This document shows, piece by piece, positions 11,825 through 52,013 of a stretch of DNA of 64,000 nucleotides (positions within the stretch are counted from its first letter, which is position 1; each line of letters opens with the position of its first letter). The position numbers and the translations under genes were made by a program. The notes beneath the pieces are model-generated. The model saw only the letters and a program-made list of their open reading frames with translations, was not told the DNA's origin and searched no databases. The stretch spans positions 384,001 to 448,000 of the forward strand of contig CAWHWQ010000001.1 in assembly GCA_963833095.1 (NCBI GenBank), given 5' to 3'. The DNA comes from Vulcanimicrobiota bacterium (GTDB lineage Bacteria; Vulcanimicrobiota; Vulcanimicrobiia; Vulcanimicrobiales; Vulcanimicrobiaceae).

Positions 11825-11958
11825 GCGGTGGAGCAGTCCGGTAGCCGTTTCGGCGGCGGCCGAAATGCGCGGCGTTTTCAGGCGAATGCCGTAGAAAACG
11901 CATAGTCGTCGGGCTCATAACCCGAAGGTCGCAAGTTCAAATCTTGCCCCCGCAACCA
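11825..11958 (+). pseudogene. interrupted tRNA-fMet copy (attR plus D-arm half, 60-nt insert)
   Basis: GCGGTGGAGCAGTCCGGTAGC + insert 11846-11905 + TCGTCGGGCTCATAACCC...GCAACCA. Confidence 0.8.
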
Positions 11959-48238: not shown

Positions 48239-48501
48239 TCATTCATTACGTTTTTCAGCGTCCATCGAACTACTTATTAAACCATATTCGGCCGCCGCGG
48301 ATGCAAGACCCGGGTAACGCCTGTTCTTTACCGCCCGCTGCGCGCAAACCGGCGAACACAGGTAGACGCCACGCCCCGGTTGCCGCTTCCCGACCCGGAG
48401 GGTCCGGCTGCCAGCCGTCGGTACGCCGGACGAACCGCGTCAACGCCGCCTGCGGCTTGAGCTTGCCGGCAGCCGACGCACGTGCGAACCGGGACGGACA
48501 T
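48239..48501 (-). CDS. ylxR: YlxR/DUF448 protein (frameshifted)
   Basis: PVRTCVGCR...LTRFV...GRGVYLC; lies between nusA and infB. Confidence 0.82.
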
Positions 48502-48504
48502 GCG

Positions 48505-49724
48505 CTACTCGCCAAGCCGCTCGCGGCGGAACTCTTCGAGCTTGCGGATGAGCTCGGCATCGACGGATGCAGCACCGCCACTCCGCGGCCCGACTTCGGC
48601 CTCCTCGGCGGCCTCGGCAGCTGGCGCCTCTTCGCCGCGGTGCGCTTCGGCGCGCTCGGCCAGGTAGCGCTCCCGCGCTTCCTCGGCTTCGGTCTCGCTT
48701 GTGATGTCGAGGCGCCAGCCGGTCAGCCGCGCGGCCAGACGCACGTTCTGTCCGTCGCGTCCGATCGCGAGCGAGAGTTGATAATCGGGCACGACGACCA
48801 GCGCGACGCCGTCGTCCTCGAAGAGTTCGACCCTGATCACCTTGGCCGGCGCGAGCGCGTTCATGATGAACGTCGCGGATCGGCGTCCCAGCGAATGATG
48901 TCGATTTTCTCGCCGCGCAAGTTATCGGTGACGTTAGCGATGCGGCTCGACTTCGGGCCCGAGGCACGCGCCGATCGGATCGACTTCGGCGCGATGCGTG
49001 CGCACGGCGACCTTGGAACGGCTGCCGGCTTCGCGCGCGATCGCCATGATCTCGACGATGCCGTCGGCGATCTCCGGAACTTCCAGCTCGAGCAAACGCT
49101 GCACGAGTCCCTCGGCCGCGCGCGACAGAATGACCTGCGGACCCTTGGGCGATTTGCGAACGTCGAGCACGTACGCGCGCATGAAATCGTTGATGCGGAA
49201 CGACTCGCCCGGAACTTGCTCGGAGAGCGGCAGAATCGCTTCGTCGCGACCTTCGAGCATCACGAACATGTTGCGCTGTTCGTAACGCTGAACGGTGCCG
49301 GTTACCAGATCGTTGAGCTTGCGCGCATATTTGTTGAAGACCGTATCGCGCTCGGCCTCGCGGATGCGCTGCACGATCACTTGCTTCGCCGTCTGCGCGG
49401 CGATGCGGCCGAAGTCTTTGGGCGTGACTTCTTCATCGAAGAAATCGCCGGCCTGATACGGCTCGCCGGCCTCTTTCATGGAGATCTCGAGTTTGGGATC
49501 TTCGACCGTTTCGACGACGTACGCGGCGATGGAAGACCTTGATACTCGCCGGTCTGCCGGTCGACGATCACGATCGCGTTGGCTTCGCTGCCGAAATGCC
49601 GCTTGTATGCGGTCAGCAATGCCGCCTCGAGCGCCTCGAGCAGCATCTCGAACGGAATGTTGCGTTCCTTCGCAATGAACTGGAGGACGTCGATAAGTTT
49701 TTCGTCAGCTGCCGATTCTGCCAT
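48505..49724 (-). CDS. nusA: transcription factor NusA (frameshifted)
   Basis: [34 protein letters not shown]. Confidence 0.93.
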
Positions 49725-50215
49725 GTGCTTTCCGTTCGCGTTTGTGGCGTTGAAGATCGGCGCGTGGATCGTATTCGAGATTTGCCGATTTGATGGTGGC
49801 GACCGGAAGCGGCAGTTCGCCATTCTCGGTCTCGAGAATCACCGTTTCGCCGCGCAGCCCGCGAGCGTGCCGCGATGCGTTTTGTTGCCGTTGATTTGGA
49901 GCGAGGTCACGATCCGCGCGCGCTTGCCGGCAAAGCGCTCGTAATCGTTCGGCCGGATCAACGGCCGTTCGAGTCCCGCCGACTCGACTTCGAGCGAGTA
50001 CGGCAGGTCGATCGCCTCGAGCGCGTGATTGATGCGCGCTGCGATGCGTTCGCAGGTGGCCAGATCGACGCCGCCATCCTTATCGATGGTGACGGTCAGC
50101 GAGGTCATGCTGCGACGCGATTGCGCCGCATGTGTGACGATCTCGACACCCGACGATCCCCGTCGTGCGCGATCGCGTCGATCTCACGCTCAAAAAGGTC
50201 CGTAAGTTCCGACAC
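49706..50215 (-). CDS. rimP: ribosome maturation factor RimP (frameshifted; ends approximate)
   Basis: IDKDGGVD..C, YSLEVESAGLERPL. Confidence 0.9.
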
Positions 50216-50231
50216 CGTCTAGAGGCCTCCC

Positions 50232-50261
50232 AACAAAGAAGCGCGGGACCTGCCCACGCTT
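50232..50261 (-). promoter_or_regulatory. rimP-leader-like hairpin
   Basis: AAGCGTGGG-CAGGT-CCCGCGCTT then CTTTGTT, just upstream of the rimP SD. Confidence 0.7.
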
Positions 50262-50281
50262 ACTCGATCAAACCGGCTTCC

Positions 50282-50311
50282 ATAGTACCTTAAAATGACG
50301 ACGGGCCGCAA
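50282..50311 (-). promoter_or_regulatory. putative rimP operon promoter
   Basis: TTGCGG-18 nt-TACTAT. Confidence 0.5.
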
Positions 50312-50324
50312 GCCCACGTGGCTT

Positions 50325-50573
50325 GAACGGCCCCCCGTTGAGAACGTCCTATGCGAATTTTCGCGCGGTAGCTGGATACGTCCAGCCGGCGTCAGCGCCT
50401 CGAAGCGCTGCTTTGGTGCGCGTATTCGCGGGCTATATGGCCCGGTGGATCTTGCGGCTCCAAGTCGGCCGCCCTCCCTGCAGGGTTCGCGTTCCGCAAA
50501 CCCGTGGCGTTTTTGGGAGCTTATGCTCCCAAAATCCGCAGCTGATATGCTGCAGCATCCACTGGATGCTGTC
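50325..50573 (-). ncRNA. candidate structured ncRNA of unknown family
   Basis: At least 7 hairpins and a multiway junction; upstream TTGCTG-17-TAGAAT promoter; no credible ORF. Confidence 0.55.
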
Positions 50574-50576
50574 TAC

Positions 50577-50605
50577 ATTCTATTCCGATAAAAGTCGTAC
50601 AGCAA
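50577..50605 (-). promoter_or_regulatory. sigma70-type promoter
   Basis: TTGCTG (50605-50600), 17 nt, TAGAAT (50582-50577). Confidence 0.6.
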
Positions 50606-50621
50606 GTGGGAATCACCCAAC

Positions 50622-52013
50622 CTACGGCGACGGAGGAGACGGGCGAGTGAACGGCACCAGCGCGCGCTCGGTGCATGGTGCGCTAGCGTGCGCCTCCACG
50701 ATCGGCGGTCCGAGGCCACCGTGAGCGGAACCACCAACGGATGTGCTCACAATGATCCCGCCGGCGACATTGTGCGTCATGTTCCCCTGCATTGCGACTG
50801 GTTGTGAGTTCTGTGGATAGCGTACCAGCCAGCCTTCGCAGATTAGCGCTGGGCCCACGCGATGGGTACTCGTCACCCACATCCGATCGAGTGCATCGCT
50901 GCCCGCGCCACGCTCTTCGTATGTGAACTTGGTCATCGCGACGACATCGGGTGGCGGCGTCGGATCCATCGAGCCGTTGAGCCCAACGTGGAAATTCGTG
51001 CTCGATTGCGTCGGGTTGACCGCATTGTGCGGGATCATTTTGCCGAGCAAATCGTTGAGATCGTTGTGAATTCCCGTTCCGGTCGAACGGCCGGACCCGG
51101 CCCCACCTGAAGCCGGCGGTTTTGGGGTCGGTGGCACCACGATCGGACGCTCCGGCCCGCTCTTTGTCCCCGCGTTTCCGGGCTTTGGCCCGGGCGAACC
51201 CTCGGCCTTGGGACCGGGCGACGGGTGCGTTCCGGTGGTCGTCGCTAGCTTGGCGGCGCCTTGCGTCGGGCTTGGGCTCGGAACGCCTGGATTCGCCGCC
51301 GGCGCTTTGCTCGGTTGATTGGCTGGTTGCGGGGATGCGCTCGGAGCGATCGTTGCGCGCGAAGCAACGACGGTCGCTGCGGTGGGAGCAGCTGTCGGCG
51401 CAGCGCTTGGCGCGGGCGTCGCCGGTCTGGATGTCGGTGCCGCAGTTGGTGCTGGTGGACGCGCTGTCGGTTTTGCGGTCGGCACGATCGACGGAACGGG
51501 ACTTGGAGCGGCAGTCGGCGGGATTCGGACCGCGACCGATTCGACCGCGACCGATGGCATCGCGGTCGGCACGGCGGGCAATTCATTTTGTGGCTTCGGC
51601 TCGTAAATCGCCGTTGTGGGCTCAGGGTTGGGTTGGGTGGAAGCTTGCGGCGCAGGCGTCGGGTTCGGCGGCGCGGTCGGCTTGAATTGCGAAAGCTCGT
51701 GGTGCTGCGGGGGTTGTGGTTGGCGCTTGGGTTGCACGAGCGGCGGATGATGCACAACCGGCGCGATGCGCGGGACATTTGGAACCGGCGCGGCTTGTTG
51801 CGCCGGCGCCGCCACTTGCGCAACAATCGGCGCGCGCTGCTCAAGGGTGACGAGCGTCCCTCCGGAGACCGATTCGCTTGCGCCTTCCTGCGACGAGCTC
51901 GAGACCAACGAAAAAAGTAGCGCGGCCAGGAGCGCATGCACGACCAACGATGCGAGGTAGCTCCCCGCGAGTCGCTCGCGCCGTCGTGGGTCACGCGGAT
52001 CGCGTTTGAGCAT
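50622..52013 (-). CDS. Pro/Ala/Thr-rich membrane-anchored protein (TonB/TolA-like anchor)
   Basis: TM helix with SLVVHALL, long proline-rich linker, small C-terminal domain. Confidence 0.75.
   Translation of the reverse strand: MLKRDPRDPRRRERLAGSYLASLVVHALLAALLFSLVSSSSQEGASESVSGGTLVTLEQRAPIVAQVAAPAQQAAPVPNVPRIAPVVHHPPLVQPKRQPQPPQHHELSQFKPTAPPNPTPAPQASTQPNPEPTTAIYEPKPQNELPAVPTAMPSVAVESVAVRIPPTAAPSPVPSIVPTAKPTARPPAPTAAPTSRPATPAPSAAPTAAPTAATVVASRATIAPSASPQPANQPSKAPAANPGVPSPSPTQGAAKLATTTGTHPSPGPKAEGSPGPKPGNAGTKSGPERPIVVPPTPKPPASGGAGSGRSTGTGIHNDLNDLLGKMIPHNAVNPTQSSTNFHVGLNGSMDPTPPPDVVAMTKFTYEERGAGSDALDRMWVTSTHRVGPALICEGWLVRYPQNSQPVAMQGNMTHNVAGGIIVSTSVGGSAHGGLGPPIVEAHASAPCTERALVPFTRPSPPSP

Follow-up and report, generated by a model that had tools for sequence, protein, structure and literature searches.

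A conserved, strongly folded small RNA bearing a putatively stalling Pro-Pro-Gly mini-ORF upstream of rimP-nusA-infB in Eremiobacterota

We found that a 64,000-nucleotide stretch of DNA (the window) from an uncultured soil bacterium of the phylum Eremiobacterota (WPS-2) contains, on its minus strand and directly upstream of rimP-nusA-infB, a conserved and strongly folded small RNA that also bears a tiny ORF with a putative stalling Pro-Pro-Gly motif. The structured unit is conserved in sequence, structure and ORF signatures, is present as a single copy, does not depend on proximity to rimP and is represented in RNA libraries. Our best reading, held tentatively and at somewhat less than even confidence, is that it is a stand-alone small gene for a structured RNA whose state is set by a putatively translated, stalling mini-ORF. 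Translation, stalling and what these control are the parts of this reading that we infer, with the same reserve, and the small RNA may report the translation capacity of the cell. An initial annotation of the window had proposed a stand-alone, non-coding structured RNA that could titrate an RNA-binding protein through repeated CAUA loops, or else a long regulatory leader. The separately promoted, structured and conserved transcript, outside Rfam and not a repeat, was borne out, whereas the titration and the non-coding status were not. The features are as follows.

50577..50605, minus strand: promoter P1 of the small RNA, TTGCTG (50605-50600), 17-nt spacer, TAGAAT (50582-50577)
50483..50571, minus strand: 5' leader of four hairpins, from the fold and an alignment of 20 loci
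50472..50478, minus strand: Shine-Dalgarno sequence GGGAGGG, with GGAGG at 50477-50473, 9 nt ahead of the start codon
50454..50472, minus strand: hairpin P1, GCGGC/GCCGC, start codon displayed in the loop
50392..50463, minus strand: mini-ORF, UUG start (50463-50461), 23 codons, UGA stop (50394-50392), predicted peptide MEPQDPPGHIAREYAHQSSASRR
50448-50440, minus strand: Pro-Pro-Gly codons within the mini-ORF
50429..50444, minus strand: hairpin P2, CGGGC-CAUAUA-GCCCG, directly after the Pro-Gly codons and partly built from them
50353..50429, minus strand: three-way junction, helices 3-7 of the covariance alignment plus the single-sequence fold
50429-50424 with 50358-50353, minus strand: helix P3, GCGAAU/AUUCGC
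50422-50418 with 50366-50362, minus strand: helix P4, CGCGC/GCGCG
50410-50393, minus strand: hairpin P5, CAGCGC-UUCGAG-GCGCUG
50386-50371, minus strand: hairpin P6, GCUGGA-CGUA-UCCAGC, conserved loop motif GGACGU
50292..50337, minus strand: terminator T1, G-rich/C-rich hairpin (CGGGGGGCCG...CGGCCCGUCG) followed by CAUUUU
50282..50311, minus strand: promoter P2 of rimP, TTGCGG (50311-50306), 18-nt spacer, TACTAT (50287-50282)
50229..50261, minus strand: rimP-leader attenuator hairpin, AAGCGUGGGC-AGGU-CCCGCGCUU plus CUUUGUUGGG, followed by a ribosome-binding site and the rimP GTG at 50215

The unit is characteristic of the host family. A covariance model matched 56 of 71 genomes of that family and none of 79 genomes from other families. 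With a sequence motif, 244 of 296 family genomes gave a match, nearly all of them once, and the reversed control matched in two of these genomes. Motif matches outside the family (18 of 104 genomes) are taken as chance; the reversed control also matches in several such families, and six of the outside matches that were retrieved (L148-L153) lack hairpin P1, three of them also lacking an in-frame ATG, GTG or TTG start. A blastn search of the unit's own genome returned one full-length copy and otherwise chance matches of up to 26 nt, so that there are no dispersed copies. Within the genus the unit lies at the corresponding place in 17 of 17 congeners, and among 100 loci gathered through the rimP-leader hairpin, 90 have a match of 170 nt or more immediately upstream.

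This placement is not universal. Seven genomes (G021, G156, G165, G078, G137, G233 and G379) lack a rimP-leader hairpin in the 450 nt that follow the unit, and in G021 the rimP leader maps to another place on the chromosome. An ordinary terminator follows the unit in G021, G165, G078, G137 and G233. Scans of the neighbours of relocated units identified an E1 dehydrogenase (G021 and G078), an ammonium transporter (G165 and G078) and a weak AurF-like match (G021). Because several genera hold it away from rimP with its own terminator, the unit occurs stand-alone, as had been proposed. Leader-peptide attenuators are attached to one operon, and at least seven genomes place this unit elsewhere.

The promoter predicted in the initial annotation, TTGCTG-17-TAGAAT, is present in the sequence and predicts a transcription start near 50570. 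Its block CGCTTGnnGnGCGACTTTTATCGGnnTAGAAT is kept in the alignment of congeners, and of the 74 relatives for which 150 nt or more of upstream sequence is available, 72 have the arrangement TTGnnn, 16-18 nt, TAnnnT ahead of the core. A scan for the strict sigma-70 consensus called no sites, neither promoter P1 nor the rimP promoter. Promoter P1 escaped it because its -35 element agrees at only three of six positions, and the case for its reality is its conservation across relatives.

What follows the promoter is far more variable. The first leader hairpin (CAGCAUC/GAUGCUG, about 50571-50553) is common to many congeners; the next three (about 50552-50483, with AUAUCA, AUAA and GAA loops) form a lineage-specific insert. 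Of 20 aligned loci, only L001, L002 and L005-L008 have the full 5' block, the rest having a shortened one or none, and in 57 of 72 relatives 11-35 nt separate the -10 element of promoter P1 from the core. This variable block, or the sequence beside it, holds three of the four C(A/G)UA loops singled out initially as a repeated feature, and the block is short or missing in most congeners; the loop of hairpin P2 varies, and only the CGUA loop of hairpin P6 is conserved. Since the loops are not conserved, and a repeated loop motif kept across relatives is absent, CsrB-like protein titration through CAUA loops is unsupported.

The fold itself is strongly supported. The minimum free energy of 50300-50580 is -138.6 kcal/mol, compared with -105.1 +/- 5.4 kcal/mol for 200 shuffles (z = -6.23), none of which folded as well. 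All of the stems listed in the initial annotation are recovered in this fold, and the multiway junction among them, now assigned to P3-P6, is the conserved core and covaries. In an alignment of 96 distinct sequences that was itself fitted to the covariance model, 93.8% of cells are paired and 37 of 45 pairs show compensatory changes, which none of 500 shuffles matched; the counts overstate independent events because the sequences compared are related. Slid controls on the same alignment gave 34-51% pairing and at most 16 pairs changed on both sides. All pairs of P3, P4 and P5 changed on both sides. Hairpin P1 (helix 1) has 98.3% of cells paired and four of five pairs changed on both sides, with stem variants such as GCGA/UCGC and GCAA/UUGC in relatives; hairpin P2 (helix 2) has 89.8% of cells paired and exchanges of CG for UA at two pairs; and T1 (helices 8-10) is paired in 95-97% of cells, also with compensatory changes. 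Covariation in the relatives' syntenic region, which had been suggested as a check, is thus seen for the core helices in the fitted alignment. In an unfitted alignment of the genus, 94.5% of cells are paired against 29-40% in slid controls, and five pairs changed on both sides, a number reached by 83 of 500 shuffles. RNAalifold on a plain MAFFT alignment of 78 sequences returned only P6, T1 and a three-pair stem (20 pairs, 6 compensatory) because the variable junction was misaligned; the structure was therefore drawn by hand on the genus alignment and a covariance model was used. Two further contacts were set aside by eye: if the ACGU loops of P6 and T1 kissed, matching changes would be expected, and one alignment shows none, and pairing of GGAGG with CCACC/UCC of the proline codons, at most three pairs or two plus two with a mismatch, is unconvincing.

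No ORF in this region had been thought credible, and the region had been called non-coding, but comparison across relatives reveals a conserved mini-ORF with frame-specific signatures. In 95 of 96 distinct relatives a GGAGG is found no more than 16 nt ahead of the start codon, with a spacing of 4-9 nt. The start codon among the 96 sequences is UUG in 91, GUG in two and CUG in two, with AUG or GUG in further genomes and CUG, AUU or AUC at the start position in some copies. The predicted peptide follows the pattern M-x-[P/S]-Q-[D/N]-P-P-G-[H/Y/Q], with His, Tyr or Gln kept after the PPG, and its invariant part is only x-[P/S]-Q-[D/N]-P-P-G. It is usually 16-18 residues long (range 13-23, and 40-plus in a few sequences); in the window copy the usual UAA reads CAA, which extends the ORF to 23 codons. 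Pro-Pro-Gly is encoded in 96 of 96 sequences, the changes falling solely at third positions (CCA/CCG, CCG/CCA and GGC/GGU/GGA), and diverged copies use CCA CCC GGG. Part of this synonymous variation is also explained by pairing, because the third position of the glycine codon sits in the P2 stem. One relative (L080) carries an in-frame 3-nt insertion. A stop codon lies 8-13 codons past the first proline codon in 79 of 96 sequences in the ORF frame and in only 3 of 96 in each other frame, and this frame-specific stop is kept although the frame shifts relative to the helices.

Pro-Pro-Gly ranks with the most potent of the ribosome-stalling motifs that elongation factor P (EF-P) relieves, and DPPG is a strong stalling context. 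The consecutive proline codons in their D/N-P-P-G setting (96 of 96 sequences), together with EF-P encoded in five of five genomes searched, would fit an EF-P-type stalling ORF. As judged from sequence, the unit would likewise fit a dual-function small RNA: it has a promoter and a terminator of its own, a ribosome-binding site ahead of a short ORF, and a conserved structured part.

RNA data for relatives suggest that the unit is probably highly expressed. In run X2, contigs of 149 and 183 nt with depths of 459 and 168 cover 50346-50478, and the rimP contigs have depths of 4.3 and 5.5; in run X3 the depth is 124 on the small RNA and 4.2-4.6 on rimP. These contigs come from relatives about 87-90% identical to the window, and contig depth is a poor measure of expression. 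RNA contigs of relatives omit 86 or 112 nt at the variable 5' block, and the lack of cover over T1, the variable block and the upstream gene in X2 and X3 should not be read as absence. In run X1, contigs bridge the small RNA and rimP; they are of low depth and may be DNA.

The apical part of T1 (50317-50301) is terminator-like in a scan, and 4-8 T follow within 11 nt of the stem in 81 of 81 sequences scored. The T1 3' arm contains the -35 element of the rimP promoter. A TTGCGG, 16-19 nt, nAnnnT arrangement marks this promoter in 82 of 96 relatives, its -10 element keeping positions 1, 2 and 6 and varying in the middle. As the initial annotation suggested, rimP has a downstream promoter (50311-50282) and a leader of its own. 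The leader hairpin (50261-50239) is terminator-like with nine pairs and is separate from the small RNA, and the 22-nt pattern that it represents was matched in 107 stretches from GTDB genomes. A rimP-leader attenuator was already described by Naville and Gautheret in 2010 (PMC2965389): its 5' arm is rich in G and its 3' arm in C, the core reads GGGc...gCCC, and a run of U immediately precedes rimP. In the window this description fits the separate hairpin at 50261-50239 and not the small RNA, whose T1 (50337-50292) shares the G-rich/C-rich signature by eye.

The small RNA falls outside known families. A search of the whole window against Rfam at gathering scores returned only two tRNAs, both elsewhere in the window, and a search of 50000-50800 against Rfam 15 at E up to 10 returned only two weak plus-strand matches inside rimP (15.3 and 14.2 bits); no model, any for the rimP leader included, matched the small RNA region at that threshold. 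Five related loci gave no matches at E up to 1. The initial annotation had called for such a scan and had seen no tmRNA or SRP signature; tmRNA and SRP RNA are both located elsewhere in five of five genomes, which rejects these identities. A 6S RNA identity is also rejected, with full-length candidates elsewhere in three of five genomes (45.7, 43.1 and 27.4 bits), all below the cut-off and none in G000 or G002. On the plus strand, ORFs at 50295-50591 and 50323-50724 were discarded: they have no Pfam match, and relatives show indels there that are not multiples of three. In the literature, the titles and abstract openings on Eremiobacterota small RNAs held nothing relevant to the element, and searches on rimP-nusA leader attenuation and on EF-P/polyproline leader peptides with terminators did not turn up a description of it, nor was a published combination of a structured small RNA with a Pro-Pro-Gly mini-ORF found.

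These observations are consistent with a model in which promoter P1 drives a transcript of approximately 200-275 nt that would end at its own terminator. Near its 5' end, a strong Shine-Dalgarno sequence and a weak UUG start in a hairpin loop would open an ORF of 13-23 codons, the remainder of which would enter the 5' arms of the covarying hairpin P2 and of P3/P4 in the three-way junction. Because the ORF overlaps these arms, a ribosome that initiates, stalls at PPG or translates as far as the stop codon would have to melt P2-P4. The signal would then be the act of translating or stalling and not the peptide: ribosome occupancy near the 5' end may set the fold and lifetime of the structured 3' domain, so that the supply of EF-P and ribosomes, and with it the capacity for translation, would be reported by the level or state of the RNA. 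The 3' domain could act through a protein or an RNA partner. In most genera the unit is parked before rimP-nusA-infB, where T1 shares the rimP-leader signature and holds the rimP -35 element; transcripts from the strong promoter P1 that read through T1 would give the rimP operon an additional, NusA-sensitive supply. We regard it as possible, though doubtful, that the element represents a riboregulator of a new class: through an invariant strong Shine-Dalgarno sequence and a weak UUG start, an abundant small RNA would draw in a ribosome and park it on the invariant PPG eight codons in, and EF-P activity and ribosome supply would gate the fold, lifetime and output of the three-way-junction domain. 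With the same tentative standing, such a riboregulator, lying next to the genes for 30S maturation, NusA and IF2, could sense translation capacity as an independent unit.

An unlikely alternative is that the unit is a small-protein gene, in which the 13-23-residue peptide is the product and the RNA helices merely stabilise or tune the mRNA. It draws on the same ORF signatures as our best explanation, and the retention of His, Tyr or Gln after PPG and an abundant RNA with a strong ribosome-binding site would suit it. However, only about eight residues are conserved and the tail varies in both sequence and length, whereas conservation of the three-way junction and of its GGACGU loop greatly exceeds what stabilising an mRNA would require. 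Moreover, no gene for a modifying enzyme or partner travels along, the neighbours varying among rimP, the ammonium transporter and the AurF-like gene.

We consider it improbable that the unit is a cis-acting attenuator of rimP-nusA-infB, in which a PPG stall decides whether transcription from promoter P1 passes T1 and the rimP leader, an arrangement that, if true, would link 30S-maturation and initiation factors to translation capacity. Proline-codon leader ORFs that govern attenuation, such as mgtP, are known. The position of the unit just upstream in 90 of 100 rimP-leader loci would suit this reading, as would the stem and U tract that make T1 typical of a rimP-leader terminator, the placement of a short ORF with putatively regulatory PPG codons upstream of this intrinsic terminator, and the X1 contigs that bridge the small RNA and rimP. 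In addition, loss of EF-P reportedly increases premature termination at polyproline ORFs (PMC5021804). However, the stop codon lies approximately 100 nt before T1, so a ribosome on the ORF cannot mask it. Constrained thermodynamic folding predicts T1 to be fully folded with the RNA free, with a ribosome stalled at PPG and with a ribosome at the stop codon in 12 of 12 sequences, and no antiterminator was found at these modelled positions. The conserved rimP promoter follows T1, the unit also occurs at other loci with unrelated genes downstream and ordinary terminators, and the bridging contigs are of low depth and may be DNA. The suggestion of a long regulatory leader is weakened because rimP has a promoter downstream, because the unit is not always beside rimP and because T1 is folded at all modelled ribosome positions.

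A purely non-coding RNA, either a protein sponge or a base-pairing regulator with a coincidental ORF, seems to us similarly improbable, as does its more specific form, in which GGAGG, the UUGGA loop and the GGACGU loop act as binding motifs, for example GGA for CsrA. The strongly conserved structure and the abundance of the RNA relative to its neighbours agree with this account. So do the GGA of the P6 loop and the GGA that 87 of 96 sequences carry in the P1 loop, and CsrA is encoded in five of five genomes searched, although a CsrA domain alone says little about sponge function. A non-coding RNA would not be expected to show variation with a period of three, the in-frame insertion, the alternation of start codons or the excess of stops in one frame. 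The CAUA loops lack conservation, the P1-loop GGA is lost exactly where codon 2 changes (for example UUG UCA, GUG ACA and AUG ACU), and by our own estimate about four GGA per 190 GC-rich nt is roughly the chance number; we reject the GGA/CsrA sponge on these grounds. Finally, a REP-like repeat cluster, a mobile-element remnant or an assembly artefact is almost inconceivable: assembly indels do split rimP and nusA across frames, but the single full-length copy, the lack of anything beyond short chance matches, the complete synteny among congeners and the nearly always single motif match per genome refute the repeat reading.

Returning to the model of a translated, stalling small RNA, among the closest known systems are the Salmonella mgtCBR and mgtA leaders, in which proline-codon ORFs (mgtP and mgtL) reportedly control the gene via attenuation, together with the EF-P-dependent coupling of transcription to translation. 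Both have a short ORF with consecutive proline codons in a structured RNA upstream of a terminator, with ribosome speed as the proposed signal. Those ORFs, however, sit in long leaders of the genes that they control and work via alternative stem-loops, whereas the small RNA has its own promoter and terminator, no antiterminator that we could find, and unrelated genes downstream. The dual-function small RNAs SgrS/SgrT, RNAIII/delta-haemolysin and SR1/SR1P, which encode peptides, similarly combine their own promoter and terminator with a short ORF and a conserved structured part. Their ORF and regulatory part are separable and their peptides have functions of their own, unlike the ORF described here, which overlaps the helices and whose invariant part is a predicted stalling motif.

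Ribosome-arrest peptides such as SecM, MifM, VemP and the RAPP type offer a further parallel, as do the ermC leader and STAB-SD, where a stalled or bound ribosome stabilises the RNA at its 5' end. The arrest peptides share a short conserved nascent-chain motif ending in Pro-Gly, but they act by opening the ribosome-binding site of the gene that follows, and the small RNA ORF has none within its reach; by analogy with the 5' stabilisers, a ribosome stalled near the 5' end could remodel or protect the downstream RNA. CsrB/RsmZ sponges resemble the unit as structured, multi-hairpin small RNAs in CsrA-encoding genomes, yet the unit has no conserved repeated loop motif: its CAUA loops are lineage-specific and GGA is not enriched, by our own estimate. 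In E. coli the arrangement is metY (initiator tRNA)-rimP-nusA-infB, with a stable-RNA gene upstream of rimP. The likeness is a stable RNA with a strong promoter upstream of rimP, terminators between them and an internal rimP promoter, whereas the small RNA is not a tRNA and carries a translated-looking ORF. Compared with the rimP-leader as described (PMC2965389), the hairpin at 50261-50239 fits and T1 repeats the signature, in the manner of the tandem terminators reported in some Gammaproteobacteria. That element is a terminator hairpin only, no larger conserved element being reported with it, whereas the small RNA is a further unit of about 200 nt upstream that contains an ORF and a three-way junction.

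Should stalling be the signal, the unit would be a free-standing sensor of translation capacity, unlike the leader peptides known so far, which to our knowledge are always wired to one operon. Our results raise the question of why a structured small RNA keeps an invariant EF-P-type stalling motif eight codons into a mini-ORF. They also hold a caution for RNA-family discovery, as an apparently textbook non-coding RNA can conceal an ORF of 16 residues visible only in comparisons between species. Eremiobacterota (WPS-2), common in peat, permafrost and acid soils, have hardly been cultured. Our searches turned up no publication on their regulatory RNAs, and the element gives the phylum a first well-supported RNA family, with several hundred members, a covarying structure and probably high expression. 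The window assembly contains indels, rimP and nusA each being broken across frames. Record titles assign the family that carries the small RNA to Baltobacteraceae, and two of its named genera stand under Vulcanimicrobiaceae at NCBI.

Between an unannotated 463-codon ORF (50622-52013, minus strand) and rimP, the minus strand carries seven features in series, the elements of which are listed here; rimP, nusA and infB (identified by Pfam) lie downstream.

50605-50577, minus strand: promoter P1 of the small RNA, TTGCTG, 17-nt spacer, TAGAAT (from sequence)
about 50571-50483, minus strand: four back-to-back hairpins (from the fold)
50478-50472, minus strand: GGGAGGG, ribosome-binding site (from sequence)
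50472-50454, minus strand: hairpin P1
50444-50429, minus strand: hairpin P2
50429-50353, minus strand: three-way junction P3-P6
50337-50292, minus strand: T1, a long G/C-rich hairpin followed by CAUUUU
50311-50282, minus strand: second promoter, that of rimP, TTGCGG, 18 nt, TACTAT
50261-50239, minus strand: second terminator-like hairpin, then a ribosome-binding site
50215, minus strand: rimP start codon GTG

A strict consensus scan called no promoters at this locus and reported terminator-like sites at 50261-50239 and 50317-50301. The upstream 463-codon ORF has no Pfam match, and its 3' end (GTCGCCGTAG) is kept in all congeners.

Our results establish that the core of this unit is a real, conserved RNA structure. 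Every stem described in the initial annotation was found in the sequence, and the region 50300-50580 folds at -138.6 kcal/mol, compared with -105.1 +/- 5.4 kcal/mol in shuffles (z = -6.23; 0 of 200 as good). Helices were drawn on A2, an 18-sequence MAFFT alignment at genus level, from which we built a covariance model (R1) of 193 positions and 45 pairs. Among 100 loci gathered via the rimP-leader hairpin, R1 matched at least 170 nt in 90, gave only matches cut by contig ends in five, and was absent from five (L068, L075, L087, L089 and L091). For a second run, those ten and one duplicate were removed and 11 congeners added, so that all 100 loci matched by selection, yielding 96 distinct rows (A4). 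In A4, which is fitted to R1 and consists of related sequences, 93.8% of cells are paired and 37 of the 45 pairs have changed on both sides, with compensatory pairs in every helix; none of 500 shuffles reached 37 or beat any of five measures, and slid controls gave 34–51% paired cells and at most 16 both-side pairs. In the unfitted A2, 94.5% of cells are paired, compared with 29–40% in slid controls. Its five both-side pairs are a count reached by 83 of 500 shuffles, and its covariation score and count of both-side-changed cells were each beaten by none. Given a plain 78-sequence alignment, RNAalifold found just P6, T1 and a single short stem.

The initial annotation saw no credible ORF here, a view overturned by the most conserved single-stranded stretch in the family, which reads as a translation start plus the eight codons after it. 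GGAGG precedes the start by 4–9 nt in 95 of 96 sequences, and the start codon, placed in the loop of hairpin P1, is UUG in 91, GUG in two and CUG in two, with one row shifted by an insertion; further genomes have ATG (G379, G318), GTG (G019), and AUU or AUC (G078, G221, G382). The peptide consensus is M-[E/D/S/T/N/K]-[P/S/L]-Q-[D/N/S]-P-P-G. Pro-Pro-Gly occurs in all 96 model-found sequences, with variation confined to third positions (CCA 82, CCG 14; CCG 95, CCA 1; GGC 83, GGU 12, GGA 1), the Gly third position being a paired base as well. A codon-motif search, in which positions one and two of every codon were preset, also found CCC and CCU, and diverged copies read CCA CCC GGG, two synonymous changes that resemble a 1-nt shift at the RNA level. 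An in-frame 3-nt insertion in L080 gives MELPQDPPG. In 79 of 96 sequences a stop comes 8–13 codons (in 68 of them 11–12 codons) past the first Pro codon, compared with 3 of 96 in each of frames +1 and +2, and it persists despite lineage shifts of the reading frame relative to P3 and P4; all such counts are inflated by relatedness. The peptide is mostly 16–18 residues long, with the stop usually in the junction ahead of P5. In the window copy, UAA has become CAA, giving 23 codons (50463-50392). The ORF takes in the 3' arm of P1, the whole of P2, and the 5' arm of both P3 and P4. Judged from these sequence patterns, the mini-ORF is probably translated.

The repeated CAUA-type loops, which the initial annotation described in four hairpins, did not hold up. 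Three hairpins at about 50552-50483, with loops AUAUCA, AUAA and GAA, form a lineage-specific insert present at full length only in L001, L002 and L005-L008 of 20 aligned loci; RNA contigs from relatives jump over it, and the core begins 11–35 nt after the -10 element in 57 of 72 relatives. The P2 loop (CAUAUA in the window) varies freely, and the only loop motif kept is GGACGU of P6. Because the repeated loops are not conserved, the proposed analogy with CsrB falls as well.

Three metatranscriptome runs from three studies (X1-X3) cover parts of the stretch with a likeness of at least 85%. In X2, contigs of 149 nt (50346-50463, depth 459) and 183 nt (50352-50478, depth 168) together reach from the ribosome-binding site as far as the 3' arm of P3, compared with depths of 4.3 and 5.5 on rimP; X3 has a 102-nt core contig at depth 124 and rimP contigs at 4.2–4.6. 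These hint at an abundant, possibly processed, stable RNA, although the depth of a contig reflects expression poorly and the contigs come from relatives, with strand and true ends not readable from them. Loose letters at both ends of the X2 core contigs resemble Illumina adapter; if so, X2 would hold numerous short inserts whose ends are fixed, one some 14 nt ahead of the ribosome-binding site and the other immediately past P3. The flanks are bridged in X1 by contigs of 665 nt (depth 7.6) and 1062 nt (depth 10.5).

The best-supported account, which we hold tentatively, is a stand-alone small gene on which a recruited ribosome meets D/N-P-P-G. The strong ribosome-binding site and weak start would recruit a ribosome that then runs into D/N-P-P-G, one of the strongest contexts for EF-P-dependent stalling; EF-P is encoded in all five genomes searched. 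With the ORF forming part of P2-P4, a ribosome on it would have to remodel the three-way junction; we propose that this remodelling determines which state the RNA adopts or how long it lasts, so that it would report on translation capacity. That the unit is something categorically new, a ribosome-stall-gated riboregulator, is less likely than not. A functional micro-peptide as the product, for which the same ORF signatures speak, seems unlikely.

A role as a cis attenuator of rimP is less probable still. T1 shows the rimP-leader signature and holds the -35 of the rimP promoter within its 3' arm, and read-through from promoter P1 may feed the rimP operon. However, the 450 nt downstream of the unit contain no rimP-leader hairpin in seven genomes (G021, G156, G165, G078, G137, G233 and G379), and T1 stayed intact under a ribosome footprint at Pro-Pro-Gly or the stop in 12 of 12 sequences in constrained folds. 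As the stop is also about 100 nt from T1, these models make a classical leader-peptide attenuator unlikely. As annotated initially, rimP has its own downstream promoter (TTGCGG, 16–19 nt, nAnnnT in 82 of 96 relatives) and leader, the hairpin at 50261-50239 being the ubiquitous rimP-leader attenuator. Naville and Gautheret 2010 (PMC2965389) describe rimP-leader as a stem of one G-rich and one C-rich arm with the core GGGc...gCCC, plus a U stretch, and with a presumed response to NusA; they report no larger conserved element.

The link of the unit to rimP is optional. In G021 the rimP leader maps to another chromosomal place than the unit, and an ordinary hairpin terminator follows the unit in G021, G165, G078, G137 and G233. 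The relocated form (L143, at G021:C1:537800-540000, L144, L145, L146, L175 and L177) has an E1 dehydrogenase gene beside it on the other strand in G021 and G078 (Pfam). Downstream lies an ammonium transporter (G165 and G078 by Pfam, G137 by N-terminal likeness) or a weak, sub-cut-off AurF-like diiron match (G021; G156 and G233 by likeness). Relocated ORFs have 13–23 codons, ending ahead of the junction in some.

A purely non-coding RNA is as improbable as the attenuator: the covarying core would suit it, and the frame-specific stop argues for coding. Rfam 15 gave no match at the unit at gathering scores or at E up to 10, nor for five related loci at E up to 1, so the unit is no known Rfam family, as first proposed. 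In the five genomes searched, tmRNA and SRP RNA are located elsewhere, and sub-threshold, full-length 6S candidates lie elsewhere in three (L128-L130 in G023, G021 and G006; 45.7, 43.1 and 27.4 bits against a cut-off of 46.4). The 6S model had no full-length match in G000 (the window's genome) or G002; 6S RNA has probably diverged too far in this family for the model to recognise it.

A repeat or artefact is extremely improbable. By blastn, the 441-nt region has one copy in its own 2.8-Mb genome, other matches being at most 26 nt, which disposes of a dispersed REP cluster. Related loci are recorded under Eremiobacterota (Vulcanimicrobiota), with Baltobacteraceae, Tumulicola and Rubrimentiphilum among the names; two of the named genera sit in Vulcanimicrobiaceae in NCBI. 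With blastn the region turned up in 17 of 17 congeners and in 6 of 7 further genera of the family, against 0 of 16 genomes from outside the family. Under stricter filters and counting G000, R1 matched 57 genomes in a phylum-wide sample of 151 (56 of 71 family genomes versus 0 of 79 elsewhere), once per genome bar one weak partial second match. A codon motif (ribosome-binding site plus Gln-Asp/Asn-Pro-Pro-Gly codons), in tallies that include 11 genomes flagged as unpublished, on which no individual claim depends, occurs in 244 of the 296 genomes of the family and is almost always single, with the reversed control in two of these; matches in 18 of 104 genomes outside the family look like chance. 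Two copies on different small contigs in G015 (C21 and C32), G291, G314 and G375 probably reflect mixed strains rather than true duplication. Eremiobacterota-type rimP leaders in public MAG records titled Alphaproteobacteria, Acidoferrum, Acidiferrales or Janthinobacterium (L029, L042, L046, L050, L091, L094) probably sit on contigs that were mis-binned or mislabelled; over the compared stretch, L029, L042 and L050 match loci of the window's congeners exactly.

The unit is filed as a small ORF-bearing regulatory RNA. Its closest known counterparts are dual-function small RNAs, the metY-rimP layout of E. coli, the proline-codon leader ORFs mgtP and mgtL, with EF-P-dependent coupling, and rimP-leader (PMC2965389). 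None of these systems is known to join a free-standing transcription unit, an invariant Pro-Pro-Gly mini-ORF and a covarying junction. We found no description of the unit in the open-access literature searched.

Several minor observations concern the surrounding sequence. T1 (50292-50337) and the hairpin region at 50229-50261, both minus strand, are terminators in tandem that share the G-rich/C-rich signature of rimP-leader, an arrangement so far reported for some Gammaproteobacteria (PMC2965389). In the assembly, rimP and nusA are spread over several frames (48270-50215, minus strand), with RimP domains in ORF 49839-50108, separate from the GTG at 50215, and NusA domains in two ORFs (49476-49823 and 48934-49479). 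RNA contigs from relatives have an extra T behind 50162 and one base fewer at 50228. Given that the assembly comprises just 8 contigs at 80.7% completeness, long-read indel errors look a likelier cause than pseudogenes. Elsewhere, a weak partial tRNA match at 11891-11948 on the plus strand (31.9 bits, model positions 7–64 of 71) could be a tRNA fragment or pseudogene.
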